A stretch of DNA of 64,000 bases from Phycisphaerales bacterium (GCA_029246705.1 JAQWMQ010000041.1:142-64141), one strand, 5' to 3'; numbered from the stretch's first letter, positions 30,238 to 50,811 are shown. The notes: generated by a model not told the origin, from the sequence alone. Made by a program: numbers and translations.

Positions 30238-31758
30238 ATGGTCATGGAAGACGAATCATCCGAAGAGCTTCTTGAGGGTGACGTCCTTGACAACCTGCCT
30301 CGTCGCTCGGTTCGAAGCGGCGCTGCGGTCCTGATCGCGCAAGGTGGGATCCTTGTCCTGGGCCTGGTGTCTGCTGCAGTGCTGGCCCGCCTGCTCAGTC
30401 CCGACGACTATGGATTGATCGGGATGGCGGCTGCGTTCATCGCATTCATCACCAATTTCGCCGATCTCGGGCTGCCTCTCGCCACCGTCCAGAGAGAACG
30501 GATCTCGCATGCCCAGTTGAGTTCGCTCTTCTGGATCAACGTCCTGGTGGGATGTCTCACCTTCTTGCTCGGTATCCTGCTTGCCTGGCCGGTGGCGTGG
30601 TTCTACGACAAGCCAGCGCTGATTCCGGTGGTGATGGGACTCGCCATTCCGTTCATCTTCACCGGACTCGGCGCTCAACAGGAAGCGTTGCTTCGACGCA
30701 GGATGCAATTCACGCACTTGTCCGTGATAAGCATTCTCTCCAACCTGACCGGGATCACCCTGGCGATCGCATCGGCCCTCTCCGGAGCGGGATACTGGTC
30801 CCTCGTCATTCTCGCACTCGGCACCTCTGTCTCGAAGTGCCTGATGTTCTGGATCGTCTCGCCATGGCGGCCGTCACCGCCGAGATTGGTCGAGGGGCTT
30901 CGTCCCATGATCAGGTTCGGGGCGTACATCACCGGTACGAATCTGCTCGCCACCTTGGTGCGAAACGTCGACAAGATCCTGATCGGACGCCTGATCAGTG
31001 TTGATGCCGTCGGTTACTACATGAATGCAAGTCGACTTCTGGTCATGCCGATCTCCCAGTTGAACATGCCCTTGACGAGCGTTGCGGTTCCGACCCTGAG
31101 CCGACTGCAGAACGATCCCAAGCGGTATCGTGGCTTCTACCGTCGTGGAGTCGAGGGCATCTCGTCCATGACCGTTCCGGCCGTGCTTTTCTTCCTGATC
31201 AGCGCCGATTTCGTCGTTCCGGCGGTCCTTGGAGATCAATGGCTGCCGTCGATCCCCATCTTCAAGGCGCTGGCGCCTGCGGCGTTGTTGGCAGGCGTCA
31301 ATGTCGTGACTTCCTGGGTGTTCGTTCCGCTGGGTCATTCTGGACGCCAGTTCCGCTGGCATGTGTTCCGATCGTTCGTGGTCCTGATCGCCTATGCAAT
31401 CGGAGTGAACTGGGGCGCCATCGGCGTGGCGATCAGCTTCAGCGCTTCCGCGGTTCTTCTGCGCATCCCGGGGGTGCTCTGGTGCATCAAGGGGACCTGC
31501 ATTCGTTTCAAGGACGTCATCGATTCTGTCTGGCGGGCGTTCACTGCGGGGGGGATCGCTTCGGTCGTCGGAGTACTGGTGGCTTCCAGCTTTGACCCGG
31601 CGGTGGAACGTTTTCTGCCCATCCCGATCATCCTGGGTTGCTTTGCGATCACCTATGCGATCTGTTGGATCCTCCTTCCGGGTGGCTGGGGCCGGTTGCA
31701 CGTCATCAGGTCGACCCTTGCCCATCTGATTCCGGGCAGGGGTGCCCCCGAGGGCTGA
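30238..31758 (+). CDS. Wzx-like polysaccharide/oligosaccharide flippase (MOP/PST family)
   Basis: 506 aa and about 12-14 TM helices. N-terminus RSVRSGAAVLIAQGGILVLGLVSAAVLARLLSPDDYGLIGMA is the canonical PST-family opening. Confidence 0.8.
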   Translation: MVMEDESSEELLEGDVLDNLPRRSVRSGAAVLIAQGGILVLGLVSAAVLARLLSPDDYGLIGMAAAFIAFITNFADLGLPLATVQRERISHAQLSSLFWINVLVGCLTFLLGILLAWPVAWFYDKPALIPVVMGLAIPFIFTGLGAQQEALLRRRMQFTHLSVISILSNLTGITLAIASALSGAGYWSLVILALGTSVSKCLMFWIVSPWRPSPPRLVEGLRPMIRFGAYITGTNLLATLVRNVDKILIGRLISVDAVGYYMNASRLLVMPISQLNMPLTSVAVPTLSRLQNDPKRYRGFYRRGVEGISSMTVPAVLFFLISADFVVPAVLGDQWLPSIPIFKALAPAALLAGVNVVTSWVFVPLGHSGRQFRWHVFRSFVVLIAYAIGVNWGAIGVAISFSASAVLLRIPGVLWCIKGTCIRFKDVIDSVWRAFTAGGIASVVGVLVASSFDPAVERFLPIPIILGCFAITYAICWILLPGGWGRLHVIRSTLAHLIPGRGAPEG

Positions 31759-31779
31759 CCCATTTAATGCCGGTTTAGC

Positions 31780-33051
31780 ATGACGGTCGTGGCTTGTATT
31801 TCCGTTATTATCCCTTGCATGGGTATCGAACAGATCAGACACGAGGACAGCTTTGGGCATCGTGCAACGACGGCGTTGCAGGAGGTGCGATTCTCACTTC
31901 TTGGTGTCTTTGAGTCGATTGATGACCTGAACGGGCAGCGGCCCATCGATCTTTCACGCCTCCTCGGCATTGACATGAAACTTGCCTGGAAGGCATCACG
32001 ACTCGTTCGTTCGGTCAACCCCGCTGAAATCCTGAATGAGCTCCCCGGTCGTCCCGGCTTCAAGAAACTGACCATTGCGGCCCAGAAGGCCGGGGCTTCA
32101 TCCGAGTCGATCGATCACCTTCGAGCGGCATACGAGACATTGAATTCGGAGATCGTGTCCCTCTCCGGAACACGCTCCCTCTTCGAAACGATGATCACCG
32201 GTCTCGGTTCCAACGTGGACACACCGCTTGCGGTTGAACAGCGGCGGCAGTTCTTCAACGGTGCTCGTGCCGTCTCCGGTAGTCAGTGTAACAGTTGCTA
32301 TCGACTGGACATCCTTGGTCCCTCATCCAAGGAAGGCTTCCTCGACTGCGCGACGATCAGGATGTCGATCGGTCTGGTGAAGTTCCATGTCACCGCTCCC
32401 TGGCGCATTCGACTGCCAGCTGTCCTGGATGACACTGGAAAGCGAAGTCGCCCTAGCAGGTGTGAACCCATCGGTTCCGCTCCTGGGGGATCAGAGCCGT
32501 CTTCCCCCCTGGTCAGCGAACTGTGCAGCGGCCCCGAGGTGAATCTGCTTCCGATCAACAGTGCTCAAGGAATCTGCGAGTACAGTTTCGAGGACAAGCT
32601 CATCGGCCCCGGATCAAAGCGGACGATCGCGATCGGCGAGGTGCTCAGGCAAGCTGAACCCGCCGTCGCCACCGACAGCCACCACGGCATCCACCAGATC
32701 ATGCGACTGCGGACCCCGATGGAATCTGCGGTGATGGATGTGCTCATGCACCGGGACACCTTCGCCTCCTCCGGCGATCCACGCCCGATCATCTATTCGG
32801 ATCTCTTCGGTGAACGCAGTGTTTCGACGTATCGGGAGACCGACCGGATGCCGATTCCGATCACGATCACGAACATCGACAACCCGGCTCTGGCTTCGGC
32901 TCCCAACGGCATGGACTCCGAGGCTTTCAGCCGCGTGCACGAGATCGCATTCGAGAAGACGGGCTGGTCGTTGGGCGACTTCCGCTACCAGCGAATCGAA
33001 CTCGCCTATCCGCCGGTTCCCTCGAGCCTGGTCTACGAAGTGGCATTGTAA
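31780..33051 (+). CDS. Hypothetical protein, no recognisable family (possible N-terminal HTH)
   Basis: 423-aa ORF 22 nt after the flippase gene on the same strand. The only hint is PIDLSRLLGIDMKLAWKASRLV near the N-terminus. Start uncertain (31780 or 31819). Confidence 0.5.
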   Translation: MTVVACISVIIPCMGIEQIRHEDSFGHRATTALQEVRFSLLGVFESIDDLNGQRPIDLSRLLGIDMKLAWKASRLVRSVNPAEILNELPGRPGFKKLTIAAQKAGASSESIDHLRAAYETLNSEIVSLSGTRSLFETMITGLGSNVDTPLAVEQRRQFFNGARAVSGSQCNSCYRLDILGPSSKEGFLDCATIRMSIGLVKFHVTAPWRIRLPAVLDDTGKRSRPSRCEPIGSAPGGSEPSSPLVSELCSGPEVNLLPINSAQGICEYSFEDKLIGPGSKRTIAIGEVLRQAEPAVATDSHHGIHQIMRLRTPMESAVMDVLMHRDTFASSGDPRPIIYSDLFGERSVSTYRETDRMPIPITITNIDNPALASAPNGMDSEAFSRVHEIAFEKTGWSLGDFRYQRIELAYPPVPSSLVYEVAL

Positions 33052-33082: not shown

Positions 33083-34018
33083 CTAGAAGCGCCATTCGTC
33101 GCTTGTCAGGTTCACCTTGAGTTCATCCCGGAGCCGTCGGTTGCTCCGTCTGATCCGCGTGTCGTTCGCGTCGATGAATTCCCGGATCACCTTTTCGTGT
33201 CTTTCCTGGAAATGCCTTCGCATGCGAAGTGGTGCGTGGGTGGACAGGAACAATGCCATCTTCTTCCAGAGGGCGTACAACCCCTCCGACTCCAATGGCG
33301 GTCCGGGATTCATGCTGGTTCGCCGGTGGAGAAGGTTCCCCCTTCGGAGGATCGCTGCTTCCAGTGGGTGTGGTCGCGCGTACTTCACTTCCTGGGAGAT
33401 TTCGGTGACGGGTTCTGCGCCAATGAAGTCGCAGATCGTGTTCATGTAGGCGATGGAATCCTTTTGCAGCAGTTCGAAATCAAGTGCCAGGACTCGTTCC
33501 CTGCCGAACCGTCTTGCATACTCCGTGACGATTTCGTCATGCAGGAGATAACTCGGTTCGAAATGAGGTATCCGGAAGTCTCCTGGGTGGTGCGGTCGAA
33601 GATAGTCATTTGCGGAGCAGTACAGTCCGATGCGAACCGCCTGGCACCAGATCGATTCGAGCTGTGACTGCTGGTCTCTCAGGATGACCAGGATCTTCGC
33701 ATCCGGACATAACCGCTGAAGTCGTTCTGCGGTCCTGTTCATGTCGAATGCCCCTGAACTGGGGTTTCCCGAGAAGCGTTCATGTGAAAGCACGGGGATA
33801 CCACCCCTTGATCTCACTGCTTCACATCGCGAATCGAGTTCCATTCGCAGGACATCCGCAGGGAAATCGGCATTGCACGGCTTGATGATCTTGCGTGCGA
33901 GGTCGGACCGATCCGGCCATGCATCGACGATGGGAGTTCCTTCATCCGGAAGGGCGGTCTGCTGGAACCAGGTCGATCCCGTTCGATGCAGTCCGATGTG
34001 TATCAGGAGCTCCGACAT
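33083..34018 (-). CDS. Sulfotransferase-family protein
   Basis: PAPS 5'-phosphosulfate loop IHIGLHRTGSTWF at the N-terminus and ILVILRDQQSQLES about 90 aa later. ATG 34018 shares one base with the DUF2304 stop (TGATG); the track start 34036 is a TTG. Confidence 0.7.
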   Translation of the reverse strand: MSELLIHIGLHRTGSTWFQQTALPDEGTPIVDAWPDRSDLARKIIKPCNADFPADVLRMELDSRCEAVRSRGGIPVLSHERFSGNPSSGAFDMNRTAERLQRLCPDAKILVILRDQQSQLESIWCQAVRIGLYCSANDYLRPHHPGDFRIPHFEPSYLLHDEIVTEYARRFGRERVLALDFELLQKDSIAYMNTICDFIGAEPVTEISQEVKYARPHPLEAAILRRGNLLHRRTSMNPGPPLESEGLYALWKKMALFLSTHAPLRMRRHFQERHEKVIREFIDANDTRIRRSNRRLRDELKVNLTSDEWRF

Positions 34019-34371
34019 CAGCGTGTATCTTCGCAATCACCATCCCTGTCGACCTCAATGATCGAGAGCTTCCGTACCAGGAGGGTGAACTCCTTGCGTA
34101 TCTGCCTGAGCCGGAGATACATGGAGAAGAAACCGATCGTCATGATGATCACCACGATGTAGAGAAGCAGGTCAGCGCCCCGGTGGATGCCGACGCTGTT
34201 GGCCAGAGTGGTCGTGATGTTCGGGTTCAACAGGGCAATGATCCCGAAGACCCAGACCAGGATCCAGAGCAGGCTCGGAATCCGGCCAAGTCGTTTCGTG
34301 ACCATCGCTCCGATGCTGATCAGCAGGAAGATGATCATCGCGGTGATGCCGATGTACTGGAATCCGGTCAT
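34018..34371 (-). CDS. DUF2304-like small membrane protein
   Basis: 117 aa, 3-4 TM helices, then an amphipathic tail LRLRQIRKEFTLLVRKLSIIE. ATGA overlap with the GT2 stop at 34368-34371. GT2 + DUF2304 is a recurrent gene pair. Confidence 0.55.
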   Translation of the reverse strand: MTGFQYIGITAMIIFLLISIGAMVTKRLGRIPSLLWILVWVFGIIALLNPNITTTLANSVGIHRGADLLLYIVVIIMTIGFFSMYLRLRQIRKEFTLLVRKLSIIEVDRDGDCEDTR

Positions 34372-35063
34372 CCGAAGACCCTTGAGATGATGTAGTGGAA
34401 GAGGATCCTGAATCCGCCGGTCCAACTCTGTCCCTTGCCGAGGGAGTACGCCGTGTATTCGATCTTGACCGGGTATTCTCGAATCACGAGGTCGCCGGCG
34501 AAGAGTTGGTCGATGATCTCGCTTGCGTGGGCCATTCGGTCGTTGGTCAGCTGGACCTGGCACGCCGCCTTTCGAGAGAGGACGCGAAGGCCGTTGTGCG
34601 CATCGGTGAGATTCGTTCCGGAGATCAGCTTCTGGAGGGTTGAGGCACAGCGCAACAGGACCCTCCGGCCGGTGGGGATCGAATCCCTCGTCTCCTTGTC
34701 GAGGAACCTCGAGCCCAGGGCCGCATCACATTCCCTGGCTTGGACCAATTCCACCATGTCGACCATGTCGATGATCCGATGTTGCCCGTCGGCATCGAAG
34801 GTGGCGATGATGTTCGCGCCACGTGAGAGTGCGTAGTCGATCCCGGTCTGGAGTGCAGCTCCCTGGCCTCGGTTCACGAAGTGCTTCAGCAAATGAGGGG
34901 TGTGTTTCCGTGCGATCTTGCTGGTTTCATCCGACGAACCATCGTCGATCACGACGATCTGGTAGCCGGTCGTCGCCACCTCGGCAAGGACTTCCCCCAG
35001 TATCGGGCCTTCGTTGAAGGCGGGGATGATGACGAAGATGTCTTCGTGTGTCGGTGTAGTCAC
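34368..35063 (-). CDS. GT2 polyprenyl-phosphate sugar synthase (DPM1/GtrB/ArnC-like)
   Basis: 231 aa, soluble. VIIPAFNEG ... IVVIDDGSSDET ... FDADGQH ... matches the dolichyl/undecaprenyl-phosphate glycosyltransferase pattern. GTG start. Confidence 0.85.
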   Translation of the reverse strand: MTTPTHEDIFVIIPAFNEGPILGEVLAEVATTGYQIVVIDDGSSDETSKIARKHTPHLLKHFVNRGQGAALQTGIDYALSRGANIIATFDADGQHRIIDMVDMVELVQARECDAALGSRFLDKETRDSIPTGRRVLLRCASTLQKLISGTNLTDAHNGLRVLSRKAACQVQLTNDRMAHASEIIDQLFAGDLVIREYPVKIEYTAYSLGKGQSWTGGFRILFHYIISRVFG

Positions 35064-35144: not shown

Positions 35145-37085
35145 ATGGGATCAAGTCGCGAAAGTACAGCCCCGCCTGGTCACACTTCACAAACAGTGTT
35201 GGTGGCATGCATTCTGGTCGGATTCCTGCTCCTCACCTGGCAGGGGGCTCTCGATGCTGACTTCGTGCTCGATGACCATCCCGTCATCGTGGAACAGGAA
35301 GGGCACATGCTCGGGCCAAAAGCGGTCTCGCGGGCCTTGGGGGCGGTTCGGCCGGTTACCGAGCTGACCTTCGTGCTCGACGCCCGCATGCATGACATGT
35401 CACCGCGCGGTTGGCACTGGACGAACCTGGTCATCCATCTCTTCGGTGCTCTTGCCTTGTTCGAGCTCGTCAGGCGATGCGCCTCGCTGGTGCTGTCGCG
35501 ATCACGGCGGTGTGGTTGTCCCGCGCGACTTGCACTTGCCGTCGGTTTCGTCACCGCGCTTCTCTGGTCGGTGCATCCGATCCACACGGAAGTGGTTTCC
35601 TACGTGGTCCAGCGATCGGAAGCACTTGCCGCACTGTTCGGTTTTCTTGCGCTCCTGTGCCTGGTGCTGTCTTTCGAGCAGGGCAAGTCCCTGCTCTGGA
35701 GCATTCCCGTATTCATCCTGGTTCTGCTCGCTTTGGGGTCGAAGGCCAGTGCGGTCTGCCTTGCCCCCATGCTCCTGCTTCTGGACTGGGGCGTTCTCGA
35801 GGGCAGCTTCGGGAAGGCGATCAGGAAGCGGTGGCCCCTGCACCTGGTGGCCTGGGTCCTGGTGATCGCATTCACCATCAGGGAGATCCTCTTCAATGGG
35901 CTGTTGGATGCGACTCCTGATCAGGCGGTCGGCGTGGGGCTGGGTGTTCGTGGTCAGGACGCACTCACCTATTTTCTTGCCCAGCTGGAGGCGGTTCCCG
36001 TCTACCTCGGGCTGATCATCTGGCCCAACGAGCTGCTCATCGATCGTCCCGACCGGACCGGTTCCTGGTCGACCGCGCTCATACCGGGGATCCTCTTTCT
36101 CATCGGCTGGCTTGCCGTCGGGTTGACGGGCCTGTCTCGTGGAAGGTGGTGGGGGGCGGTCATGTTGATGGCCATCATCGCGATCATGCCCAGTTCCTCC
36201 TTCATTCCGGTGGCGGACGTCATCGTCGAGCATCGGCTCTACCTGCCTCTTGCCCCGCTCGCGGTCCTGTTGGTCGGTGGTCTGGCGGGTGTCCTCCTCG
36301 CCACGAGCGAAAGAGGTTTCAGGCCTTCCTGGTTGCCCGTTTCACTGGTCGCTCTCTTCCTGGTCGTGATCGTCTCGCTTTCCGCGATACGAACCGATGC
36401 ACGCAACCTGGACTACGCCTCCCCCGGGATCCTGTGGTCACAGGTACTGGGAGCCGATACCGGAAGCGTCCGGGCGCGCATCAACTACTCAAGTGAACTG
36501 CTTCGCAAAGGTCGACACCAGGAAGCACTTCCATACATCGAGGAGATCCTCGCCACCCACCCGAGCAACCTTCAGGCACACATCAACGCCGGGATCGTGC
36601 TGCTTGCACTGGACCAGCCGGTTGAAGCCCTGATGCATCTTCGTATCGCGGAGGAGACCTACAGCGGGCACCCTTCCATGCATGCCGCGTTGGGCGACGC
36701 CGAACGGTCCCTGGGCAATCTCGAATCCGCGGAACACCACTTCAAGCGGGTCATCGAGCGACAGCCCAGCGATGCTCGGACCTGCCTGGTCCTGGCCAAT
36801 GTCCTGCAGGAACAAGGGCGCCTCGAGGAATCGATCGAATACCAGGAACTTGCCATAGGCATACTCCAGGGGGGGGTTGATCGTGAACTCCTGCATTCGG
36901 CGCTCATGAATCGGGGAAGTTCGGCATTTCAACTCGAACGTTGGTCCGAAGCTGCCGACTATTACCGGGAGGCCATGGCGACCGCGCCGACCGACGAGCA
37001 ACGGGAACGGATCGGGCCATACTTCGAGGCGGCTACAGTGCGTTCGACCCAGCTCGAAACCGGCGAACAGCAAGATGATGAATGA
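35145..37085 (+). CDS. Polytopic membrane protein with C-terminal TPR repeats; TMTC/PMT-like GT-C glycosyltransferase candidate
   Basis: Real start is ATG 35145; upstream track codons overlap the divergent GT2. The first loop motif DADFVLDDHPVIV resembles the DFVFDD loop of TMTC-type O-mannosyltransferases. About 10 TM helices, then TPRs (HQEALPYIEEILATHPSNLQAHIN..., LGNLESAEHHFKRVIERQPSDA...). Confidence 0.7.
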   Translation: MGSSRESTAPPGHTSQTVLVACILVGFLLLTWQGALDADFVLDDHPVIVEQEGHMLGPKAVSRALGAVRPVTELTFVLDARMHDMSPRGWHWTNLVIHLFGALALFELVRRCASLVLSRSRRCGCPARLALAVGFVTALLWSVHPIHTEVVSYVVQRSEALAALFGFLALLCLVLSFEQGKSLLWSIPVFILVLLALGSKASAVCLAPMLLLLDWGVLEGSFGKAIRKRWPLHLVAWVLVIAFTIREILFNGLLDATPDQAVGVGLGVRGQDALTYFLAQLEAVPVYLGLIIWPNELLIDRPDRTGSWSTALIPGILFLIGWLAVGLTGLSRGRWWGAVMLMAIIAIMPSSSFIPVADVIVEHRLYLPLAPLAVLLVGGLAGVLLATSERGFRPSWLPVSLVALFLVVIVSLSAIRTDARNLDYASPGILWSQVLGADTGSVRARINYSSELLRKGRHQEALPYIEEILATHPSNLQAHINAGIVLLALDQPVEALMHLRIAEETYSGHPSMHAALGDAERSLGNLESAEHHFKRVIERQPSDARTCLVLANVLQEQGRLEESIEYQELAIGILQGGVDRELLHSALMNRGSSAFQLERWSEAADYYREAMATAPTDEQRERIGPYFEAATVRSTQLETGEQQDDE

Positions 37086-40712: not shown

Positions 40713-40721
40713 TCCTCTCGA

Positions 40722-41657: not shown

Positions 41658-41676
41658 TACATGGCTGTGATCGGCA

Positions 41677-43426: not shown

Positions 43427-44107
43427 ATGCCACGCCCTTTCGTGATACTCATGACCGGCCGAACCGGAAGCAGTTACCTGGTGAGTGCCCTGCAGTCCCA
43501 TCCCCGGGCGATGGTCGTTGGTGAGCGCCTGGTGGGGCTTTCCGAAGCAAGTGAACAACTGGCATGGATCGAACGGTTCTACCGACGCTGGCGATTCCGG
43601 ATCAAGTCGGTCGGTTTCAAGACCAAGCTCAAGGATGTGGTTGATCGCGATGCGCTCGCCGAGGTTCTTCTTCGGCATGAAGCCAGGGTGATCATGGTGT
43701 TGCGCAGGGACGCCCTGCGGCAGGCGATCTCCGTGATTCGCGCCCGGGAACTCAAGGCCGCTCACGGCGTCTGGAATCAGACCGTGAACACTCCGGACCT
43801 GGAGCCTTCGTTGGTCGATCTTGCGGATCTTGATGCAGTGCTTGCCGACGTCTCCGATCGAAACCTCGAACTCGACCACTTTGCATCCACGCTCGATCTG
43901 CCCAGGCACGTGGTTCATTACGAGGAACTCCTTGCCGATCCGACGGGTACCCTCGGTGCGGTTCAGGATTTCCTCGGACTTCGGCGACGTGCCTTGACCG
44001 CTTCGACCAGGAAGAACACTGCCGACGAGCTGGAGCTCACCATCCGCAACTACGACGAGATGCGCGAGCATCTCGTGGGGACCGAGTACGAGCGCTTCCT
44101 TGCCTGA
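43427..44107 (+). CDS. Sulfotransferase (Stf0-like)
   Basis: MPRPFVILMTGRTGSSYLVSAL (P-loop-like PAPS site at the extreme N-terminus) and RVIMVLRRDALRQAIS, as in Stf0-type enzymes. Confidence 0.7.
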   Translation: MPRPFVILMTGRTGSSYLVSALQSHPRAMVVGERLVGLSEASEQLAWIERFYRRWRFRIKSVGFKTKLKDVVDRDALAEVLLRHEARVIMVLRRDALRQAISVIRARELKAAHGVWNQTVNTPDLEPSLVDLADLDAVLADVSDRNLELDHFASTLDLPRHVVHYEELLADPTGTLGAVQDFLGLRRRALTASTRKNTADELELTIRNYDEMREHLVGTEYERFLA

Positions 44108-44115
44108 TGCGGTTT

Positions 44116-45000
44116 TCAGGAACCCTGCCACAGCTTGAGCACTCGTCGCCATCGCTCCCTGCGCCTGAGAGACCTGTTCAGCAGGAGTTGGGATTCAAGG
44201 ATCGATGACAGCTGGGCGTTTCGGATGTCATGTGAAGACAGGTGGTTCCTGAGCCACTTCAGGAAGCGATGCCGGTAGTACGCATTGTTCGATCGCTTGA
44301 ACGAACCTGCAACACAGGAACCATCATGCTGGCGGTACCTGATCCAGGTCCTCGCGTCGATGTAGACGCTCTTTTCAAGAAACAGCTTCGCGAGGAAGAC
44401 CTGGTCCTCGTACATCCCCTTGAATGCCTGTTCGTATCCTCCGACGTCCAGGTAGGCGCTTCTGCGCATCATGGGTGAGATGGGGACGCTGCTGCTGTTG
44501 GAAAGGAAGAGTGCGGTGATTCCGGGAGGGGCTGCGATTCGGTCGAGATCGAGGCCCATGAACTGTGCTTGAGCCTCTTGAGTGCCTTTCTTCCCCTGGT
44601 CATCGGTCCAGAAACGCTGGTTCGGTCCGAAGGTCGCCATGGCTTCCGGGTGGTCATCCAGCCTTTGCACCATCTGCGTCAGCGCCGAAGGCGTCATGAG
44701 ATCATCGTGGTCGAGGAAGATGATCAGCGGGCTGGAGCAGGATTCGACCCCCAGCTTTCGCGTCGCACTCATGCCATGATTCCTGCCGTCGGGATGGCTC
44801 ATGCACCGGATGTGGTTCGGATGCTCCCTGATCATGGATTCCACGATGCCGACGGTGTCGTCGGTCGAACCGTCATCGACCACCAGCAGTTCGTAGTCAT
44901 CGAAATCCTGATCTAGAACGCTCCTGATGCTCTCTTCGATCAGGAGACTTCCGTTGTGGACGATCATGATGATCGTCACCTTCGCAGGAGGTGAACTCAT
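44116..45000 (-). CDS. GT2 glycosyltransferase
   Basis: VTIIMIVHNGSLLIEESIRSVLDQDFDDYELLVVDDGSTDDT ... IIFLDHDDL. ATGA overlap with the upstream sulfotransferase stop (44997-45000). The track ORF extension to 45816 is antisense noise. Confidence 0.85.
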   Translation of the reverse strand: MSSPPAKVTIIMIVHNGSLLIEESIRSVLDQDFDDYELLVVDDGSTDDTVGIVESMIREHPNHIRCMSHPDGRNHGMSATRKLGVESCSSPLIIFLDHDDLMTPSALTQMVQRLDDHPEAMATFGPNQRFWTDDQGKKGTQEAQAQFMGLDLDRIAAPPGITALFLSNSSSVPISPMMRRSAYLDVGGYEQAFKGMYEDQVFLAKLFLEKSVYIDARTWIRYRQHDGSCVAGSFKRSNNAYYRHRFLKWLRNHLSSHDIRNAQLSSILESQLLLNRSLRRRERWRRVLKLWQGS

Positions 45001-45911
45001 TCGTTCGCCGATCCATCCAGGCTTCCATCCCGGTGGTAGCCGAGTCGCTCCATCAGTTCCCCGGTCTCGCGCCAGACGACACGCGACTGGCGTCTCCCCA
45101 GTTCCTTCCGCCAGCCGTCGGTGCTGCCGGTTCGGACGAAACCATCGGGTTCCTCGACGGTCCTGTTCGAGAGTTCCCCTCCCAACACATACCCGTTCTC
45201 CTGAGGTCGTTCGCTGGTCGCCTCTGCGATGCCACGCACCGTGCGTTCGAGTTCCTCCGTGGAGGCATCCACCCCGGCGAAGGACATCGCCCGGGCAAGT
45301 ACTGCCTGGGGATCTGCCCTGAGGTGCTCGAAGTGGAGTCGCAGGTAGTTTTCGGGGGCGAGTGCTTCGGAGGCGGATTCCGCCTCCTCCACGAAGGTCT
45401 TCCAGATGCGCGCGGCCACCCTCGCATTCCCGGTCGCCCATTCCCGTCCCCATCCATCCCGGTATGCAGCAAGAAGCGATGCAGTGACCGCCCTGCTGTC
45501 TCGGACGAGGTGGATGATTCTCGCTTGTGGCAGGACCTGGGAGATCACGTCCAGGTGTCGCGCGTGGTCCGGCGTCTTCTCGACGAGTCGAATGGCCTCC
45601 GGCCGTCCGGTGATCGCGGGCTGCATGGTGCGCGTCCACAGCGCACGGAGTTCCTCGAGAAGCTCCTCCCTGGTCCAGGCGCATGCCAGTCCATGTGGTC
45701 GCTGCATGCCGAGCTTGCGATCGAAGTCCCTGAGGACTCCCGCGAATGAGTCGAAGAAATGACTCTCCTGCCCACCACAGAATCGATCGTCGGCCAGGAG
45801 AAGCCGATGAAGCCACGTCGTACCACTGCGGGGGGCGCCGACGATCAGTATCGGATCCTGCTGGGCGAGTTGTTTCGTCCTGACCGGTCCACCATCGGAT
45901 GTTTCATCCAT
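44997..45911 (-). CDS. Sulfotransferase-family protein
   Basis: ILIVGAPRSGTTWLHRLL (5'-PSB loop) and RIIHLVRDSRAVTASL (3'-PB). ATG at 45911; the track start 45929 is a TTG. Confidence 0.8.
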   Translation of the reverse strand: MDETSDGGPVRTKQLAQQDPILIVGAPRSGTTWLHRLLLADDRFCGGQESHFFDSFAGVLRDFDRKLGMQRPHGLACAWTREELLEELRALWTRTMQPAITGRPEAIRLVEKTPDHARHLDVISQVLPQARIIHLVRDSRAVTASLLAAYRDGWGREWATGNARVAARIWKTFVEEAESASEALAPENYLRLHFEHLRADPQAVLARAMSFAGVDASTEELERTVRGIAEATSERPQENGYVLGGELSNRTVEEPDGFVRTGSTDGWRKELGRRQSRVVWRETGELMERLGYHRDGSLDGSANE

Positions 45912-45925
45912 GTCGTGTTCCAATC

Positions 45926-46798
45926 TCAATGAGGCCAGGGCAGTTGCATGTCCAGCAGTTGGGAGAGATCGCGATTCGAGTCGCCGTAGATCAATCGGAG
46001 TTCGCGTTGCATCTTCTCCGAAATCGGTGCTCCGGTCACACCGGGATTCCGATGCTCGAACGCCTCCGGCCTGCCCTGGGGAAGACCCAGGAACGCTTCG
46101 ATCCTGGGAAGCACCTCACCGGGCGACGCGAAGAGATGTTCCGAGATCTCCACATGGATGCGATCCTGTCCCAGCGCCTGCTGCCAGCGGCGTATCTGTG
46201 GTGCATAGTGCCCCCTGGCGACATAGGAGTGGTGACGGAGGTGGTGGCTGGTGGCGGAGGGGTCAGCAAGGAGTCGCTCCGCTTCACCTGCGGTTCGCTC
46301 CTTCTCGGCCGCGATCGCGGCTTCGAAATCGAGGTCCTCGAGACCCAGTCGCACGCAATGACGATGATGGGAATACGCCCGTGCCACGGGGTCACGCAGG
46401 AGGATCACGATCCTGGGGTTTTCGAGAACGCTCGCCGCTTCCGTCGCGGCACGAGGGTGGAACAGGTCGTACGGCGTGCCTTCTCCGAGGAGGATCCTCC
46501 GACCGGCAGCCTTTTCCATCGAACGTCTCTTCCATCTGGTCGGGAAGAACGCCCGATAGCTGCTGATCGGTCGGCGTGGCCCGCTGAGGAAGTTGCATTC
46601 CTTGCATCGAGCGATCCAGGCGCCCGGGTTGTGATCGAGGTAGGTGGTCAGGGATGTGGTTCCCGCCTTCTGCGCACCGATCACGAGGAAATCCGGCAAG
46701 CAACGGAACGGACCGAGAAGTCGATGGCTCCACGGCGACGGGGGTGTTTCCTCCGGCCTCTGATTCCGGATCGATTGCATCGACGGGTGATCGTTCAT
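45926..46798 (-). CDS. Sulfotransferase-family protein (heparan-sulfate-sulfotransferase-like motif set)
   Basis: DFLVIGAQKAGTTSLTTYL and IVILLRDPVARAYSHH reproduce the K-x-GTT-x-L / RDP-x-x-R-x-x-S pattern. Confidence 0.8.
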   Translation of the reverse strand: MNDHPSMQSIRNQRPEETPPSPWSHRLLGPFRCLPDFLVIGAQKAGTTSLTTYLDHNPGAWIARCKECNFLSGPRRPISSYRAFFPTRWKRRSMEKAAGRRILLGEGTPYDLFHPRAATEAASVLENPRIVILLRDPVARAYSHHRHCVRLGLEDLDFEAAIAAEKERTAGEAERLLADPSATSHHLRHHSYVARGHYAPQIRRWQQALGQDRIHVEISEHLFASPGEVLPRIEAFLGLPQGRPEAFEHRNPGVTGAPISEKMQRELRLIYGDSNRDLSQLLDMQLPWPH

Positions 46799-46839
46799 GG
46801 TCAGAGCATATTCTACGAGGTGTCGAGTATGCTGAAGTC

Positions 46840-47928
46840 ATGCCCAACCTTGATACGGCAGCGCCCCCCATGATCTCCGTGGTCATACCGACCTGCGATC
46901 GACGTATCAAGACTCGCAAGTGTGTCGACTCCCTCCTCACGCAGGATCTCGAGTCCTTCGAGGTGATCGTGGTTGATGATGGATCCCGCGATGGCACGCC
47001 GGATGCCCTCTCCGACATCGAGGATCCCCGGCTTCACGTACTCAGGAATGAACGGAACATCGGCGCCAATGCCAGCCGGAACCGAGGGGCGCGTCACGCC
47101 CGTGCGGATCTGGTGGTCTTTCTCGATTCCGACTGCATTGCTGAGCCGGGCTGCCTCTCCAACTACCTTTCAGCCTTCACGGATCCTTCCGTCGGTGCGG
47201 CTTCCGGGCTCGTTGAGGACACCCCGCCTCGGAATGTCTGGGAGCTCCTGTTTCGAGGGACCCACCGATTCGGCACGCCCGGCCCGATCTCGCGCATCTG
47301 TTCCGCGAATGTCTGCATCCGCCGTTCCCTCCTGCTGGGTCATGAGATGGAGGAGGACTTCAGCGACAACGCCGTGGGCGAGGATGGCGTCGTGGACACG
47401 AGTTTTTCCGGTCGGTGTGACGAGGAAGGCCTCTTCCTGGCGATTCGCAAGGCTGGTTGGCAGGTGGTGGCCCATCCGGAGTCCAAGGTGGATCATGATC
47501 ATCCGTATGACAGGCGCTCGCTGTTCAAGCAGGCCTTTCATGGTGGTGGTGCGGCAGCGGAACTCGTCTGGAAGTTCAGGTTGCGTGATCGACTGGACCT
47601 GATCCCACTCGTTGCATTCTGGTTCTGCATCCTGCCCGCAGTGGTTCTCGCGCTGGTGCTGTCTCCCTGGTTCCTGCTGCTTCCGGTTCCGTTTCTTTTG
47701 TTGCAGTCGGTGGCGGTGTCCTACAACGAGATGGCTCGCAAGGGAAAGACATTCCCGCAGCTGCTTCGAATCACGCCTGCTCTGGTCATCTACTACCACT
47801 TGCGCCTTGCGGGCTACCTGCTTCGCCGGGTCCAGTTGCTGATCGGCGTTCGGCCGATCGAACGCATCGACCCGGCAAGCTTCGCCTCCGGCATGCCGCG
47901 TCCGGGCAGTGAGGTTGCATCGGCATGA
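46840..47928 (+). CDS. GT2 glycosyltransferase with C-terminal TM helices
   Basis: ISVVIPTCDRR ... VIVVDDGSRDGT ... VVFLDSDCIAEPG ... then LIPLVAFWFCILPAVVLALVLSPWFLLLPVPFLLL. The upstream track codons (from 46654) overlap the divergent gene. Confidence 0.85.
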   Translation: MPNLDTAAPPMISVVIPTCDRRIKTRKCVDSLLTQDLESFEVIVVDDGSRDGTPDALSDIEDPRLHVLRNERNIGANASRNRGARHARADLVVFLDSDCIAEPGCLSNYLSAFTDPSVGAASGLVEDTPPRNVWELLFRGTHRFGTPGPISRICSANVCIRRSLLLGHEMEEDFSDNAVGEDGVVDTSFSGRCDEEGLFLAIRKAGWQVVAHPESKVDHDHPYDRRSLFKQAFHGGGAAAELVWKFRLRDRLDLIPLVAFWFCILPAVVLALVLSPWFLLLPVPFLLLQSVAVSYNEMARKGKTFPQLLRITPALVIYYHLRLAGYLLRRVQLLIGVRPIERIDPASFASGMPRPGSEVASA

Positions 47929-48749
47929 GTGTGCAACGCCAGCCATTCATCCGCTTGCGGTCCTCCATCGAGAAGCCGCTGCAGCGACGTGGCCTGCTTC
48001 CGGTGCGTCGAGAGGAGTTTCCGCGCTTTCTCGGGATTGGTGCCCAGAAGTCCGGGACGACCTGGCTTCATGCGAACCTCTCGAGGCATCCCTCGATCTT
48101 CCTGCCGGAAACCAAGGAACTCCACTACTTCGACTGGAACTTCCACCGTCCTCTTTCCGAGTATCTCGCGCACTTCAAGCAGGCCGGTGAGCGGATTCGT
48201 GGAGAGATCACGCCGGGGTATTCCGTCCTCGATGATGACAGGGTCGACTTCATCCGCGGTGTCGCCCCGGACCTCAAGGTGATTCTCCTGCTGCGCGACC
48301 CGATCGAACGTGCCTGGTCCCAGGCGGTGATGAACATCGTCGAGATCGAAGGACGGCCGGCAGGAGAGATCCCGGATGCGGCATTCCTGGAACATCTTGC
48401 GGATGACCGAGTTCGCCTGCGCAATGACTACCTCGGGATCATCGACCGCTGGGGTGGCGCCTTTGGCCCTGAGAACATCCACGTCGGTTTCTTCGAGGAC
48501 GTCTCGGAACGGCCGATAGAACTCCTGCGTGGGATACTCGAGTTCCTTGGTGTTCCCGATGAAGAGGATGCGGATTTCAGCATGGCAGGCAAGCGAGTGC
48601 GTCCCGGCATCCCCGTGCCGATGCCGGAATCGGTTCGTGAGGCCCTGGTCGCTGACAACACCGATGGTCTCAGGCGCCTGCATCAGCGTTTCGGTGCACC
48701 AGTGGATGCATGGATGAAGCGACATGGGATCAGTGAGGTCGTTTCCTGA
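47925..48749 (+). CDS. Sulfotransferase-family protein (heparan-sulfate-sulfotransferase-like motif set)
   Basis: RFLGIGAQKSGTTWLHANL and VILLLRDPIERAWSQ. ATGA overlap with the GT2 stop. Confidence 0.85.
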   Translation: MSVQRQPFIRLRSSIEKPLQRRGLLPVRREEFPRFLGIGAQKSGTTWLHANLSRHPSIFLPETKELHYFDWNFHRPLSEYLAHFKQAGERIRGEITPGYSVLDDDRVDFIRGVAPDLKVILLLRDPIERAWSQAVMNIVEIEGRPAGEIPDAAFLEHLADDRVRLRNDYLGIIDRWGGAFGPENIHVGFFEDVSERPIELLRGILEFLGVPDEEDADFSMAGKRVRPGIPVPMPESVREALVADNTDGLRRLHQRFGAPVDAWMKRHGISEVVS

Positions 48750-49588
48750 TGACGTCCGATCCTCCAAGACTCAAGTTGAAGGCCTATCGCTCGAAGAAGG
48801 CGTTCGAGGAGGCCTGGTCCAATTTCCGTGCACGCAGTCATCCCAACCCACTCTTCATCTTCGGCAACCAGAAGTCAGGTACTTCCGCCATTGCCGCCTT
48901 GATCGGTGCATGCACCGATCTGGATGTCAGCCTCGATTTTCCCCGTGAGATCCTGGATCCAACCGTGCCGGATGTTCACCGGGGAAGGATCGATCTGCAG
49001 TCATTCATCCGGCGGAATCGATTGAGTTTCTCGCGACCGATCATCAAGGAACCCTCGATCACCTTCCTGGCGGAAGCACTGCTCGAGACGTATCCTCGGA
49101 GTGAAGCGATCTTCGTGACCCGTCATCCCTTCGAGAACATCCGTAGCATCCTCGACCGACTCGGGATTCCGGGGGATCGTGAGTCGCTCGCCCCGGTGGA
49201 TCTCGAGGATGTGAGCCGCACATGGATGACGGTTCTGGACAATCGATGGCAGGACGTTGAAGCGGAGCACTACATCGGGCAACTTGCCGGAAGATGGGTG
49301 GCTGCCGCACGAATCTGCCAGAGACTCGACACTCGGGTCCATCTCGTCAGGTACGAGGATTTCGAGCTGGACAAGGAGGGGGTCATTCGTGAGTTGGCTC
49401 GAAAGGTCGGGTTTGAACCGTTGAAGTCGATCGAGCATCTGGTGGATGTCCAGTACCAGCCCCCCGGCAGTCGTGGTCGCAGTGCACAGGAGGTGTACGG
49501 TTCGAATCTCGACATCCTCATCGAGTCATGCTGGCCGCTTGCCACCGAGTTCGGCTACGAAAGCTCGGGACAGGTGGTGTCGCTGTGA
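48749..49588 (+). CDS. Sulfotransferase-like protein (divergent)
   Basis: LFIFGNQKSGTSAIAALI (5'-PSB-like) and AIFVTRHPFENIRS (3'-PB-like). TGATG junction with the preceding gene. Confidence 0.65.
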   Translation: MTSDPPRLKLKAYRSKKAFEEAWSNFRARSHPNPLFIFGNQKSGTSAIAALIGACTDLDVSLDFPREILDPTVPDVHRGRIDLQSFIRRNRLSFSRPIIKEPSITFLAEALLETYPRSEAIFVTRHPFENIRSILDRLGIPGDRESLAPVDLEDVSRTWMTVLDNRWQDVEAEHYIGQLAGRWVAAARICQRLDTRVHLVRYEDFELDKEGVIRELARKVGFEPLKSIEHLVDVQYQPPGSRGRSAQEVYGSNLDILIESCWPLATEFGYESSGQVVSL

Positions 49589-50811
49589 AGATCCTGATGG
49601 TCGGACACTTCTTCCCCCAGAAGGCCGAGACCTTCATCCTGGAGCAGGCGAATGCGCTGGTTGAACTTGGGCATGACCTCACCATCCTGACGCTGATCGG
49701 TGGCGATCCGGATGCCTTCGACGAGCGGTCGCATCGAAACGGGCTGCCGGATCGAGTGGTCGACGGGACGGTATATGGCCGACCGCTGTTTCAGCGGATG
49801 CTGCCGACGATCCGCGGATTCCTCAAGTCATTGATTCGTCATCCTCGAGCCCTTGCCTTTGCACGTCATGGCAAGCGTGCCTGGCGAGGTCAGATCGCAG
49901 CCGCAGTGGACCAGATCGGTGACCTTGGTGACTTTGATGTGATCTTCGCTTTCTTCGGCACCGCAGGGATCTCCGCCGAATGCCTGCGGGACGTCGGCCT
50001 CTTCAAGGGACCGATCGTCACCAGTTTCCTCGGCTATGACATCACGCGAGAGATCCTGCTCAACGGCAATGTCGGGTACACCCGACTTTTCAGGAATGGT
50101 GTCGAGTTCAACCCGAACTCCGAGTTCCTCCGGTCGCTCCTGCTGGAGAACGGAGCTCCCCTGGAACGTACGCACGTCCACCGCCTCGGCGTCGACCTGG
50201 GGAACTTCGAATACCTCGATCGGGGTGCGGATGAGGATGGGCCGGTTCGAATCGCGGCGGTTGGTCGTCTGGTCGAGAAGAAGGGGTTCGCCTGCTTGCT
50301 TGCTGCGGCCGGGCTGCTTCGTGATCGGGGGGTCGACTTCCAGCTCGAGATCGCCGGATCGGGGCCTCTCATGGGAGATCTCGAGTCCAGGATCGCTGCG
50401 CTCGAGTTGCAGGATCATGTCACCCTGCTTGGTTGGTGCAAGCCAACCCAGATCATCGAGCTCCTGCATCGTTCTCAGCTCTTCATCGTTCCCAGCGTGG
50501 TTGCGCCCGATGGTGACCAGGAGGGGCTCCCGCTGACGATGATCGAGGCCTGCTCCACCGGTCTTCCGGTTGTCGGCACCTACCACTCCGGCATTCCCGA
50601 GGCGATCATCGATGGTGAAACAGGGTTTCTCGTGGATGAACATGACCACGAGGCTCTGGCAAAGGCCATTCAGAGCCTGTGCCAAGACCCTGCGTTGCGT
50701 CGGTCATTCGGTGCGAACGCCCGTGCGTTCATGGAATCCCGGTTTTCGGCTTCCGAGCAGGCTCAGGCACTTGAGGCCATTTTGGTTCGAGCGTCCCATA
50801 AAATGACTTAA
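49585..50811 (+). CDS. GT4 (GT-B fold, group 1) glycosyltransferase
   Basis: GTG 49585 (GTGA overlap) gives VKILMVGHFFPQ. C-terminal E-x7-E region EGLPLTMIEACSTGLPVVGTYHSGIPEAIIDGETGFLV. Confidence 0.85.
   Translation: MKILMVGHFFPQKAETFILEQANALVELGHDLTILTLIGGDPDAFDERSHRNGLPDRVVDGTVYGRPLFQRMLPTIRGFLKSLIRHPRALAFARHGKRAWRGQIAAAVDQIGDLGDFDVIFAFFGTAGISAECLRDVGLFKGPIVTSFLGYDITREILLNGNVGYTRLFRNGVEFNPNSEFLRSLLLENGAPLERTHVHRLGVDLGNFEYLDRGADEDGPVRIAAVGRLVEKKGFACLLAAAGLLRDRGVDFQLEIAGSGPLMGDLESRIAALELQDHVTLLGWCKPTQIIELLHRSQLFIVPSVVAPDGDQEGLPLTMIEACSTGLPVVGTYHSGIPEAIIDGETGFLVDEHDHEALAKAIQSLCQDPALRRSFGANARAFMESRFSASEQAQALEAILVRASHKMT

Follow-up and report, generated by a model that had tools for sequence, protein, structure and literature searches.

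Gene clusters in which sulfotransferases accompany exopolysaccharide (EPS) machinery are well established in cyanobacteria (PMC8205485; PMC13125312), where the sulfotransferase genes lie mostly in putative polysaccharide clusters (PMC8205485). The synechan (xss) cluster of Synechocystis sp. PCC 6803 encodes two sulfotransferases, and its glycosyltransferases (GTs) and sulfotransferases agree in number with the stoichiometry of sugars and sulfates in the product (Maeda et al. 2021, PMC8205485). Here we describe a 64-kb stretch of DNA, hereafter the window, from a metagenome-assembled genome (MAG) of an uncultured marine Phycisphaerales bacterium. Positions 30238-50811 of the window, hereafter the island, encode six predicted sulfotransferases dependent on 3'-phosphoadenosine 5'-phosphosulfate (PAPS), ST1 to ST6, interspersed with glycosyltransferase genes. 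As judged from its genes, the island probably directs the biosynthesis of a sulfated glycoconjugate of the envelope or cell surface.

Related arrangements are described from other lineages. Pontiella sulfatireligans F21 (Kiritimatiellae), a member of the Planctomycetes-Verrucomicrobia-Chlamydiae (PVC) superphylum, makes a sulfated EPS resembling glycosaminoglycans (GAGs), which was measured chemically and for which a putative cluster is given (PMC7356697). In Halobacterium salinarum the two sulfotransferases Agl30 and Agl31 sulfate different sugars of the N-glycosylation oligosaccharide (PMC11980604). The Mycobacterium tuberculosis proteins PpgS (Rv3631), Rv3632 and Rv3779 act in the galactosamine (GalN) decoration of arabinogalactan, as summarised in PMC3485146. 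Finally, the eukaryotic O-mannosyltransferases TMTC1-4 carry motifs defined by Eisenhaber et al., among them M1 (DD, loop 1), M2 (SHKSYRP...), M4 (KE..), M5 (DW) and M7 (ERxxY) (PMC7801869).

With the synechan cluster the island shares sulfotransferases placed among GTs and a Wzx flippase, and the lack of an outer-membrane exporter within the cluster. It differs in phylum and in the number of sulfotransferases, six compared with two. Whereas xss encodes a priming GT, the polymerase Wzy, a polysaccharide co-polymerase (PCP) and the regulators XssQ, XssR and XssS, none of these is seen in the island; no response-regulator, histidine-kinase or STAND domains occur there, and the sole candidate regulator is the uncharacterised protein orf423. 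Conversely, a PpgS/DUF2304 pair, a GT-C protein with tetratricopeptide repeats (TPRs), DUF6541 and HTTM proteins and adjacent PA14 proteins are found with the island and not with xss. The Pontiella cluster, which we liken to the island by gene content and not by homology, also comes from a marine PVC bacterium and contains GT2 and GT4 enzymes, a TuaB-type flippase and an in-cluster sulfotransferase. It follows the same two-track logic, with a polyprenyl-phosphate sugar synthase (GT2), the large polytopic protein YfhO and GtrA. However, it has a single sulfotransferase in the cluster, with three candidates genome-wide, and TMTC-like/TPR and DUF6541 proteins are not reported from it. Agl30 and Agl31 provide a precedent for one enzyme per sulfation position, although in an archaeal system with two enzymes and a glycan N-linked to protein. 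The first-pass annotation of the island had held that the bacterial routes to sulfated glycoconjugates that it named involve only one or a few sulfotransferases; this is true of the characterised cases (two in synechan, one in Pontiella), but sulfotransferase-bearing polysaccharide clusters are known in various cyanobacteria (PMC8205485).

That annotation had proposed the six sulfotransferases from their PAPS-binding motifs. Their coordinates are correct, the quoted motif strings occur in the translations, and in profile searches all six open reading frames (ORFs) exceed curated Pfam gathering cut-offs for sulfotransferase families (27 bits for Sulfotransfer_3, 22 for Sulfotransfer_1 and 22 for the Stf0 family PF09037) with E-values of 1e-7 to 1e-32; they are not generic P-loop proteins. 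ST1 (33083-34018, minus strand) matches Sulfotransfer_3 with 34.0 bits and ST2 (43427-44107, plus strand) with 33.0 bits, the latter also matching PF09037 with 23.4 bits. ST3 (44997-45911, minus strand) scores 113.9 bits against Sulfotransfer_3 and 65.4 against Sulfotransfer_1, ST4 (45926-46798, minus strand) 32.9 and 33.9 bits, and ST5 (47925-48749, plus strand) 61.8 and 41.6 bits, respectively. The most divergent member, ST6 (48749-49588, plus strand), matches Sulfotransfer_3 with 45.5 bits. An iterated search with the six proteins against all window ORFs of at least 90 amino acids returned exactly these six and none further. By sequence, the six ORFs are thus genuine members of the PAPS-dependent sulfotransferase superfamily. 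Chance is not credible as an explanation, because of these E-values and because the same arrangement is found in independent assemblies.

All six proteins share a (K/R)-x-G-(S/T)-(S/T) loop for 5'-phosphosulfate binding, namely HRTGST in ST1, GRTGSS in ST2, PRSGTT in ST3, QKAGTT in ST4, QKSGTT in ST5 and QKSGTS in ST6, and a 3'-phosphate-binding motif R-x7-S. Both motifs are intact in every orthologue, at overall identities of 37-79%, which argues for maintained function of the predicted enzymes. In the related loci that we compared (numbered L001 onward), the ST1 motifs are kept down to 37% identity (L093, L098), those of ST5 down to 46%, and those of ST6 in seven orthologues down to 38%, including one from a Tepidisphaeraceae locus (L029). 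GRTGSS and R-x7-S of ST2 are kept in L007 and L009, as are the motifs of ST3, and QK(A/S)GTT and LRDPxxRAYS are conserved in the orthologues of ST4. An identical ST5 protein is present on 16 metagenome contigs.

Significant solved sulfotransferase relatives exist for five of the six proteins (ST1-ST5). The closest relatives of ST3 are the OLS and CurM polyketide sulfotransferases (PDB 4gox, 4.3e-8), followed by the tyrosylprotein sulfotransferase TPST (2.9e-7) and mycobacterial Stf1. ST1 matches the bacterial structure 3rnl (2.4e-4), and ST2 matches the heparan sulfate (HS) 3-O-sulfotransferase 3-OST-3A (3.6e-5). For ST4 and ST5, the heparan-sulfate type proposed in the first-pass annotation is upheld: the best match is 3rnl in both cases (3.4e-19 and 3.2e-14), closer than either HS enzyme, followed by HS 3-OST-5 and the N-deacetylase/N-sulfotransferase NDST (~2e-6) for ST4 and by HS 3-OST-1 (1.2e-9) for ST5. 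The two proteins share with the animal 3-OST/NDST enzymes and 3rnl the K-x-G-T-T loop, the RDPxxRxxS segment and an aligned Glu in the E-x-T-P segment. In contrast to the animal enzymes they are soluble, cytoplasmic and bacterial; the likeness is one of sequence, with no sign of a heparan-like acceptor. The aligned Glu is a candidate catalytic base in ST5 (EKTP of 3-OST-1) and ST4 (GE of 3rnl), and a further one is found in ST3 (GEET segment of TPST). ST2 passes PF09037 marginally (23.4 bits compared with 22, in its C-terminal half only) and reaches 21.4 bits against the NCBIfam Stf0 equivalog NF047724, which has a cut-off of 400. It is thus Stf0-like in fold family as judged from these profiles, and not an Stf0 orthologue.

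The six sulfotransferases are mutually divergent, with pairwise identities near background and a highest value of 31% between ST4 and ST5, so that a recent paralogous expansion was ruled out. This argues for six separate predicted specificities, as the proteins are only distantly related, and not for recent duplicates. None of the six has a signal peptide or a transmembrane (TM) segment. As described in the first-pass annotation, the island genes form seven transcription units in alternating orientation, and 8 of 11 internal junctions overlap (ATGA, GTGA, TGATG or 11 nt). Sulfotransferase and GT genes are translationally coupled with one another (GT2c/ST3 and GT2d/ST5/ST6/GT4), the ST6 and GT4 genes overlapping by GTGA. 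In a distant Phycisphaerae MAG (GCA_002709295; L093, 17666-19893) an ST6-like domain is apparently fused to the N-terminus of GT4 and called as one protein of 530 amino acids; if real, the fusion argues that ST6 and the GT4 step are functionally linked.

The island arrangement recurs in Phycisphaerae, but the sulfotransferase swarm, around which the first-pass annotation had framed the locus, is not the defining feature of the system. Gene order is kept in relatives whose HTTM proteins are 57-74% identical to that of the window. L007 encodes all six sulfotransferases, and the 14-kb contig L009 has the six-sulfotransferase form, with five present on the contig. In L008 and L013, exactly the block ST2-GT2c-ST3-ST4 is missing, while ST1, ST5 and ST6 are kept. 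L013 (MAG Phycisphaerales ALOHA_ZT_32) was the sole close match, at 58% identity, among 80 loci returned from a collection holding one genome for each of 185,579 species. More distant loci (28-40% identity) were reached by a search with the DUF6541-type TPR protein. In distant Phycisphaerae, at 30-40% identity, they retain a core consisting of a PpgS-like GT2 with DUF2304, divergent from a GT-C/TPR gene, GT2a, a DUF6541/TPR gene and one or two GT2b-like genes. A small dockerin-like ORF and secreted proteins of large size with PA14/LamG or Lectin_C domains also belong to it, and to this core are often added GT2d, Wzx and GT4, and frequently orf423.

Sulfotransferase content varies among these loci. 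L093 has three (ST1-, ST5- and ST6-like), L111 two, L095 and L098 one each, and L094 an unrelated Sulfotransfer_2 gene. In ten loci of at least 15 kb no ST1-ST6-type ORF was detected, and others have one to three, six being found only in the window and two close relatives; this census detects ST1-ST6-type proteins only, and as several loci are probably drawn from one population or from sister populations, the counts overstate independence. Because sulfotransferase content varies while the core persists, the swarm is a lineage-specific modular addition to an older conserved Phycisphaerae locus and not the heart of the system. Within it, ST1, ST5 and ST6 are the older, conserved set, and ST2-GT2c-ST3-ST4 is an accessory block that is present or absent as a unit.

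Between the window and L001 and L003, populations that are ~99.5% identical (window 38088-56793 compared), the accessory module (ST2, GT2c, ST3, ST4) shows 16 non-synonymous and 13 synonymous codon differences, compared with 6 and 14 in TPR874, GT2b, HTTM, GT2d, ST5, ST6 and GT4. This is consistent with weaker constraint on the accessory module, the differences being too few for a test of selection. In L002, of the same species as the window, the ST3 orthologue (7133-7987) has four gap positions and GT2d (8916-10004) is called as two ORFs.

The inventory of the remaining genes given in the first-pass annotation (a Wzx flippase, a PpgS/DUF2304 pair, two TPR membrane proteins, an HTTM protein, one GT4 and one orphan) stands, except that its five GT2 genes are four ordinary GT2 genes and the PpgS-like gene. 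The DUF2304 gene (34018-34371, minus strand; PF10066, 70.9 bits) encodes a small membrane protein with three hydrophobic segments, an Rv3632-like partner of PpgS. It overlaps by ATGA the gene of the PpgS-like GT2 (34368-35063, minus strand), a predicted polyprenyl-phosphate sugar synthase that matches NCBIfam NF058614 over its full length with 215.3 bits and Glycos_transf_2 with 86.7 bits. The pair is kept in nearly all related loci. Because the PpgS score lies under the equivalog cut-off of 370, with AglJ and dolichyl-P-hexose transferase as next matches, the protein is by its profile matches a PpgS homologue to which a sugar specificity is not assignable. The mycobacterial system has the same combination of a GT2 polyprenyl-phosphate-sugar synthase, an adjacent DUF2304 protein and a GT-C enzyme acting outside the cytoplasm (PMC3485146). 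It has no sulfation, however, and the GT-C protein of the island is TMTC/PMT-like with TPRs and not Rv3779-like.

This GT-C protein, TPR734 (35145-37085, plus strand; 646 amino acids as annotated), has ~11 TM helices (11-12 hydrophobic segments) and C-terminal TPRs, which match at residues 525-711 of a 734-residue ORF starting at 34881, equivalent to ~437-623 of the 646-residue protein. Five orthologues share invariant motifs in the order FVxDD just after TM1, RP..L(T/S), K, (L)DW and (E/D)HRxY, corresponding to D43-D44, R69-P70, K200, D214(-W) and (E/D)-H363-R364-x-Y. These match TMTC motifs M1, M2, M4, M5 and M7 in order and content. TPR734 thus resembles TMTC1-4 (PMC7801869) in having ~11 TM helices followed by TPRs and a DD motif in the first extracytoplasmic loop, after which come, in like succession, RP..L(S/T), K, DW and E-R-x-Y-like motifs; it differs in that M3 and M6 are not clearly identified, DUF1736 and PMT_2 give no direct match, and the donor is probably not dolichyl-P-mannose. 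No direct Pfam match (PMT_2, PMT, DUF1736) was obtained for the membrane domain of TPR734 itself. Among its homologues, a fragment of the L008 orthologue reaches 25.1 bits against PMT_2 (cut-off 26.1), the positional orthologue in L095 has PMT_2 on record at E of at most 1e-5, and 2 of 10 distant homologues of the same architecture exceed the cut-off (29.7 and 30.1 bits). A profile of the membrane domain retrieves 27,934 representative proteins at E of at most 1e-3, and against PDB sequences TPR matches only. On its motifs and homologues we treat TPR734 as a putative TMTC/PMT-clan GT-C glycosyltransferase. Its obvious donor would be the product of the divergently transcribed PpgS-like/DUF2304 pair.

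The second TPR membrane protein, TPR874 (38088-40712, plus strand), is polytopic and of the DUF6541 type; it has a soluble alpha/beta domain and ends in TPRs, with matches to TPR families at residues 713-848. PF20176 (DUF6541) is matched by 9 of 37 aligned members of its family (best 1.2e-16), including the L093 orthologue with 56.6 bits (cut-off 29), whereas the window protein itself gives no match to the profile. No mention of DUF6541 was found in the literature searched, and the family is one of no known function. An AlphaFold2 model of TPR874 has a mean predicted local distance difference test score (pLDDT) of 85.6 and a predicted template modelling score (pTM) of 0.81. In a fold search with this model the top matches were all TPR proteins, leaving the membrane domain unclassified, and a profile of the membrane part against PDB sequences gave nothing significant, including no solved Wzy, WaaL or other enzyme. 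TPR874 may act as a polymerase, as a ligase or as a second transferase of lipid-linked sugars.

GT2a (37075-38091, plus strand; Glycos_transf_2 86.1, Glyco_tranf_2_3 58.4, Glyco_transf_21 33.9 bits) lies between the two TPR genes and is translationally coupled to both. It is membrane-anchored by C-terminal hydrophobic helices and is the best-conserved gene of the locus, with 51-61% identity in distant loci. GT2d (46840-47928, plus strand; Glycos_transf_2 105.3, Glyco_tranf_2_3 63.0 bits) is likewise membrane-anchored through C-terminal hydrophobic helices and conserved in related loci. GT2b (40722-41657, minus strand; Glycos_transf_2 49.9 bits) stands beside TPR874 in most related loci, and GT2c (44116-45000, minus strand; Glycos_transf_2 96.1, Glyco_tranf_2_2 70.4 bits) is the GT of the accessory module, absent from L008 and L013. 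The WcaL-like GT4 (49585-50811, plus strand) matches Glycos_transf_1 with 138.9 bits and NCBIfam WcaL with 206 bits, under its cut-off. The GT2 matches in the island are generic, and no GAG synthase of the KfiA/KfiC, HAS or chondroitin polymerase type was recognised among them. The Wzx-type flippase of the multidrug/oligosaccharidyl-lipid/polysaccharide (MOP) kind (30238-31758, plus strand; ~12-14 hydrophobic segments) matches Polysacc_synt_3 with 292.9 bits, Polysacc_synt with 139.4 bits and NCBIfam PRK10459 with 245.8 bits, under the equivalog cut-off of 273. Homologues are found in L093, L098, L103, L109, L121 and L122.

Immediately downstream of the island, a small secreted protein of 118 amino acids (50986-51342, plus strand) with a signal-like N-terminus carries a dockerin-like double repeat (dockerin_GC NF041540, a weak 16.4 bits compared with a cut-off of 29). 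It is followed by two secreted proteins with dockerin-like C-termini, one at 51440-55054 (plus strand; PA14 94.7, Laminin_G_3 35.9 bits) and one at 55114-56793 (plus strand; PA14 50.0, Laminin_G_3 43.1 bits). The small ORF is syntenic in many related loci, and PA14/LamG proteins adjoin the core in L008, L013, L093, L094, L095, L098, L101, L102 and L107. Taken together, secreted PA14/LamG proteins and the small dockerin-like ORF flank the core not only in the window but also in L007, L008 and L013 and, of the 30 distant loci giving matches (from L093 onward), in 14. Given the synteny of the small ORF and the PA14 proteins, the functional locus probably reaches beyond 50811, to at least 56793; the boundaries 30238-50811 set in the first-pass annotation do enclose all genes that it listed. 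The glycan system may have its partners or substrates in these PA14/LamG proteins.

In the window, the stretch 50986-61474 (plus strand) holds five consecutive genes with signal-like N-termini and a common C-terminal double repeat, 'DG.DL..LLG.WG', ending in W-G-x-C-x: the 118-residue ORF, the two PA14/LamG proteins and two proteins of 780 amino acids with Chlamydia-PMP-like repeats. The dockerin-like module may conceivably bind the glycan of the adjoining locus. Related surface proteins are not restricted to the right flank of the island, as a LamG protein of 979 amino acids with a dockerin/EF-hand-like C-terminal motif is encoded 20 kb upstream of it (7654-10593, plus strand). An extra GT2 gene lies 5 kb upstream (23856-24788, minus strand). 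Abutting the island on that side (24971-30086, plus strand) are genes for a PSCyt1/PSCyt2/PSD1 protein (1196 amino acids) and a DUF1501 protein (504 amino acids), a pair that is a planctomycete hallmark and marks the left boundary of the glycan locus. The island shows a weak dip in GC content (0.58-0.62 compared with 0.63-0.64 upstream). Scans of the 64 kb for mobile-element and riboswitch signals revealed no tRNA, tmRNA or Rfam family at gathering score. The deposited proteins for HTTM (MDG2032170, near-identical and called seven residues shorter), ST3 (MDG2032173, exact) and ST5 (MDG2032176, exact) carry generic annotation only.

The HTTM-domain polytopic membrane protein (41677-43335, minus strand; PF05090 39.5 bits, cut-off 27.7) lies within the island only in close relatives (L007, L008, L009 and L013, 57-74% identity). 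As a long-range synteny anchor or member of the ancient core it was ruled out, since three homologues of 35% identity (from Pirellulales and two others) lie in unrelated neighbourhoods. Judging by the neighbouring genes, nothing in the locus suggests a carboxylase function for this protein. In other phyla, HTTM homologues of 25-41% identity often adjoin GT4, Wzx or GT2 genes, as in L028, L029, L037 and many Bacteroidota loci among L013-L092; the taxa include Omnitrophota, Rokubacteria, Tepidisphaeraceae, Crocinitomicaceae, Dokdonia and Balneola, and L029 also has an ST6-like sulfotransferase. Many of these homologues are fusions with a DCC1-like thiol-disulfide oxidoreductase (PF04134). The pattern suggests that bacterial HTTM proteins may have an unrecognised role in envelope glycan pathways. 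In the titles and abstracts retrieved for 'HTTM domain' no bacterial glycan role is apparent.

The orphan orf423 (31780-33051, plus strand; real start probably ~31819) is a soluble protein of 423 amino acids with a helical N-terminal and a beta-rich C-terminal part. It has no match in Pfam or NCBIfam and is found in 13 protein clusters among 5.8 billion, the sole source name given being Phycisphaera sp. As a clade-specific orphan of 410 amino acids it is syntenic within the core in L007, L008, L013, L093, L094, L098, L101, L102 and L107. Its AlphaFold2 model (pLDDT 76.6) gave fold matches to the N-domain of M1 aminopeptidases and to OST1/ribophorin, which we rejected as uninformative (TM-score of at most 0.27). 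A likeness of the N-terminal part to a helix-turn-helix was seen by eye only and is unsupported, and as a soluble protein orf423 was ruled out as the missing Wzy polymerase.

Several functions of classical assembly pathways were not recognised. Scanning every large ORF of the 64-kb window with Pfam bears out the absence, noted in the first-pass annotation, of Wzy, a Wzz/Wzc-type PCP, an outer-membrane polysaccharide exporter (OPX/Wza), an ABC exporter and the PAPS-supply genes cysDN, cysC and cysQ. In these scans there is also no priming phosphoglycosyltransferase of the Bac_transf or WecA type, a gap that the first-pass annotation did not mention, and no ABC transporter domains that would indicate a Wzm/Wzt or KpsM/KpsT exporter. 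Wzy, PCP, OPX and the priming enzyme are also missing from precomputed Pfam gene tables of the syntenic loci L093-L095. An oligosaccharyltransferase of the PglL/Wzy_C or PglB type was likewise not recognised, and the window contains no genes for polyketide synthases (PKS), non-ribosomal peptide synthetases (NRPS) or peptides that are synthesised on ribosomes and modified after translation (RiPPs). The missing PAPS-supply genes are uninformative because they are normally encoded elsewhere in the genome.

From these data we propose the following mechanism, in which substrate, order of steps, site of sulfation, multiple sulfation of the product and attachment are inferred. At the cytoplasmic face of the inner membrane, the soluble and membrane-anchored GT2 and GT4 enzymes would build an oligosaccharide on a polyprenyl carrier. 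The six signal-less sulfotransferases would then sulfate different positions or sugars of the lipid-linked intermediate; we place this step in the cytoplasm because that is where PAPS is available and because the enzymes lack signals for export. By way of the Wzx-type flippase the sulfated unit would cross to the periplasmic side. Alongside this, a polyprenyl-monophosphate sugar would be made by the PpgS-like GT2 together with DUF2304, and the TMTC/PMT-type GT-C enzyme, and possibly the DUF6541-type TPR protein, would use it in the periplasm on the glycan or its acceptor. The accessory block ST2-GT2c-ST3-ST4 could add one extra sugar and up to three extra sulfates, so that the degree of sulfation would be modular.

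We consider it likely that the island directs the synthesis of a sulfated glycoconjugate, yet a number of points weigh against this assignment. The organism is uncultured and known from its genes alone. Against PDB sequences, ST6 gives a weak match to Stf1 only (E=0.15) and is thus without a significant solved relative, and a catalytic base could be located by alignment for ST3, ST4 and ST5 only, ST1, ST2 and ST6 giving no reliable alignment. The membrane domains of TPR734 and TPR874 have no direct Pfam or PDB match, their roles resting on homologues and motifs, and no role in the proposed pathway is assigned to the HTTM protein or orf423. The ST3 indels in L002 may mean that part of the island has turned into pseudogenes in that population, or may come from faulty assembly, so that all six genes are perhaps not intact everywhere. 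Lastly, the pathway cannot be closed from the window sequence, because no priming enzyme, Wzy, PCP, OPX or ligase was recognised there or in the syntenic Pfam tables.

The fate of the glycan admits more than one explanation. A sulfated oligosaccharide, a single sugar delivered by the GT-C enzyme, or both may be attached to the secreted PA14/LamG proteins, yielding a proteoglycan-like product for which no polymerase or exporter is needed; we hold this as a reasonable possibility, short of an expectation. It agrees with the flanking of the core by PA14/LamG proteins and the dockerin-like ORF in the window, L007, L008, L013 and 14 of the 30 distant loci, with the lack of Wzy, PCP and OPX in the window and in the syntenic loci with Pfam tables, and with the placement of TPR734 in the GT-C/PMT clan, whose TMTC branch acts in the cadherin O-mannosylation pathway and also has lumenal TPRs. 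Halobacterium glycoproteins, moreover, bear a sulfated N-linked tetrasaccharide made with two sulfotransferases (PMC11980604). However, no recognisable PglL/Wzy_C or PglB oligosaccharyltransferase is present, the PA14 proteins are not Ser/Thr-rich, and PA14 and LamG are carbohydrate-binding folds, so that these proteins may be binders of the glycan and not its carriers. The bacterial GT-C/TPR family is also very large (27,934 representatives), and we know of no characterised member. The best-studied PpgS/GT-C pair, for its part, modifies a polysaccharide (PMC3485146). The fullest version, a Phycisphaerae surface-glycoprotein system in which TMTC-like and DUF6541-type TPR enzymes glycosylate adhesin-like PA14/LamG proteins and, in some lineages, up to six sulfotransferases elaborate the glycan, a counterpart of proteoglycans that dispenses with Wzy, PCP and OPX, we think somewhat unlikely as a whole. 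An equally tentative explanation is a classical Wzx/Wzy-dependent sulfated EPS, capsule or O-antigen, whose priming enzyme, Wzy, PCP and OPX (or WaaL) are encoded elsewhere, or in which the DUF6541 or HTTM protein is an unrecognised polymerase. Wzx with five GT2-family enzymes and one GT4 is normal content for a repeat-unit locus, and location of Wzx/Wzy pathway genes elsewhere in the genome is common in planctomycetes. Wzy proteins often escape profile searches, and conserved loops are present in TPR874 and HTTM, both of them large and polytopic, the HTTM homologues of other phyla often standing beside Wzx, GT4 and GT2 genes. The synechan OPX is encoded off-cluster as well (PMC8205485). Against this, the missing functions are absent from all longer syntenic loci as well as from the 64-kb window, the membrane part of TPR874 resembles no solved Wzy, WaaL or other enzyme, and HTTM lies inside the island in the closest relatives only.

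Two further explanations are much less probable. GT2a and GT2d could glycosylate a membrane lipid whose head group is then sulfated, as in mycobacterial sulfolipids or sulfatides; both match Glyco_transf_21 (33.9 bits, and 21.0 bits just under the cut-off of 21.7) and have C-terminal membrane helices, and ST2 and ST3/ST6 are related to the mycobacterial Stf0 and Stf1 families, respectively. We regard such a glycolipid as improbable: a simple product of this kind would need neither a Wzx flippase nor two large TPR proteins facing the periplasm, six sulfotransferases and six glycosyltransferase genes exceed the needs of known sulfoglycolipids, and the Stf0 similarity is marginal (NCBIfam 21.4 bits compared with a cut-off of 400). 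That some or most of the sulfotransferases have targets other than glycans, such as tyrosines of secreted proteins, polyketide-like or small molecules, or are inactive paralogues, their clustering with GT genes being partly coincidental, seems very improbable. The best solved relatives of ST3 are indeed polyketide (OLS/CurM) and tyrosylprotein sulfotransferases, the ratio of non-synonymous to synonymous differences is 16:13 in the accessory module compared with 6:14 in the other island genes compared, and ST3 has indels in one sample. On the other hand, the sulfotransferase and GT genes are translationally coupled (GT2c/ST3, GT2d/ST5/ST6/GT4), gene order is kept at 50-75% identity, the PAPS motifs are strictly conserved and PKS, NRPS and RiPP genes are missing from the window. 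Returning to the sulfated glycoconjugate as the product of the island, we lean slightly towards a neighbouring PA14/LamG or other protein as the final acceptor, with a polymer whose Wzy and export genes lie elsewhere almost as probable and a lipid or lipopolysaccharide-like anchor making up the remainder.

The first-pass annotation had called the pathway undescribed. No such locus was found in the literature searched, but the general kind of system is known. Our literature search returned no paper combining Phycisphaerae with sulfotransferases; for Planctomycetota and sulfotransferases it returned brown-algal fucoidan work only, irrelevant by title and abstract. Different from the known clusters are the six divergent sulfotransferases, the three-sulfotransferase module that is present or absent, the TMTC-like, DUF6541, HTTM and orf423 proteins, the lack of recognisable polymerase and export genes, the neighbours with dockerin-like tails, and the taxon.

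Planctomycetes and their PVC relatives have been studied as degraders of sulfated algal polysaccharides and possess large sulfatase repertoires. If our assignment is true, heavily sulfated glycans are also produced, and not only degraded, in an abundant marine lineage of uncultured Phycisphaerales, which would be relevant to marine sulfur and carbon cycling, to particle stickiness and possibly to interactions with phages or grazers. The six divergent bacterial carbohydrate-type sulfotransferases, two of them heparan-sulfate-like, would form an enzyme resource and are candidates for microbial production of sulfated polysaccharides. The locus also provides a defined genetic context, and suggests testable roles, for the bacterial TMTC-like GT-C/TPR family (~28,000 representative clusters), for DUF6541 and for bacterial HTTM proteins. 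Finally, the loci in which no, one, three or six ST1-ST6-type genes were detected would constitute a natural series by which genes may be linked to sulfation.

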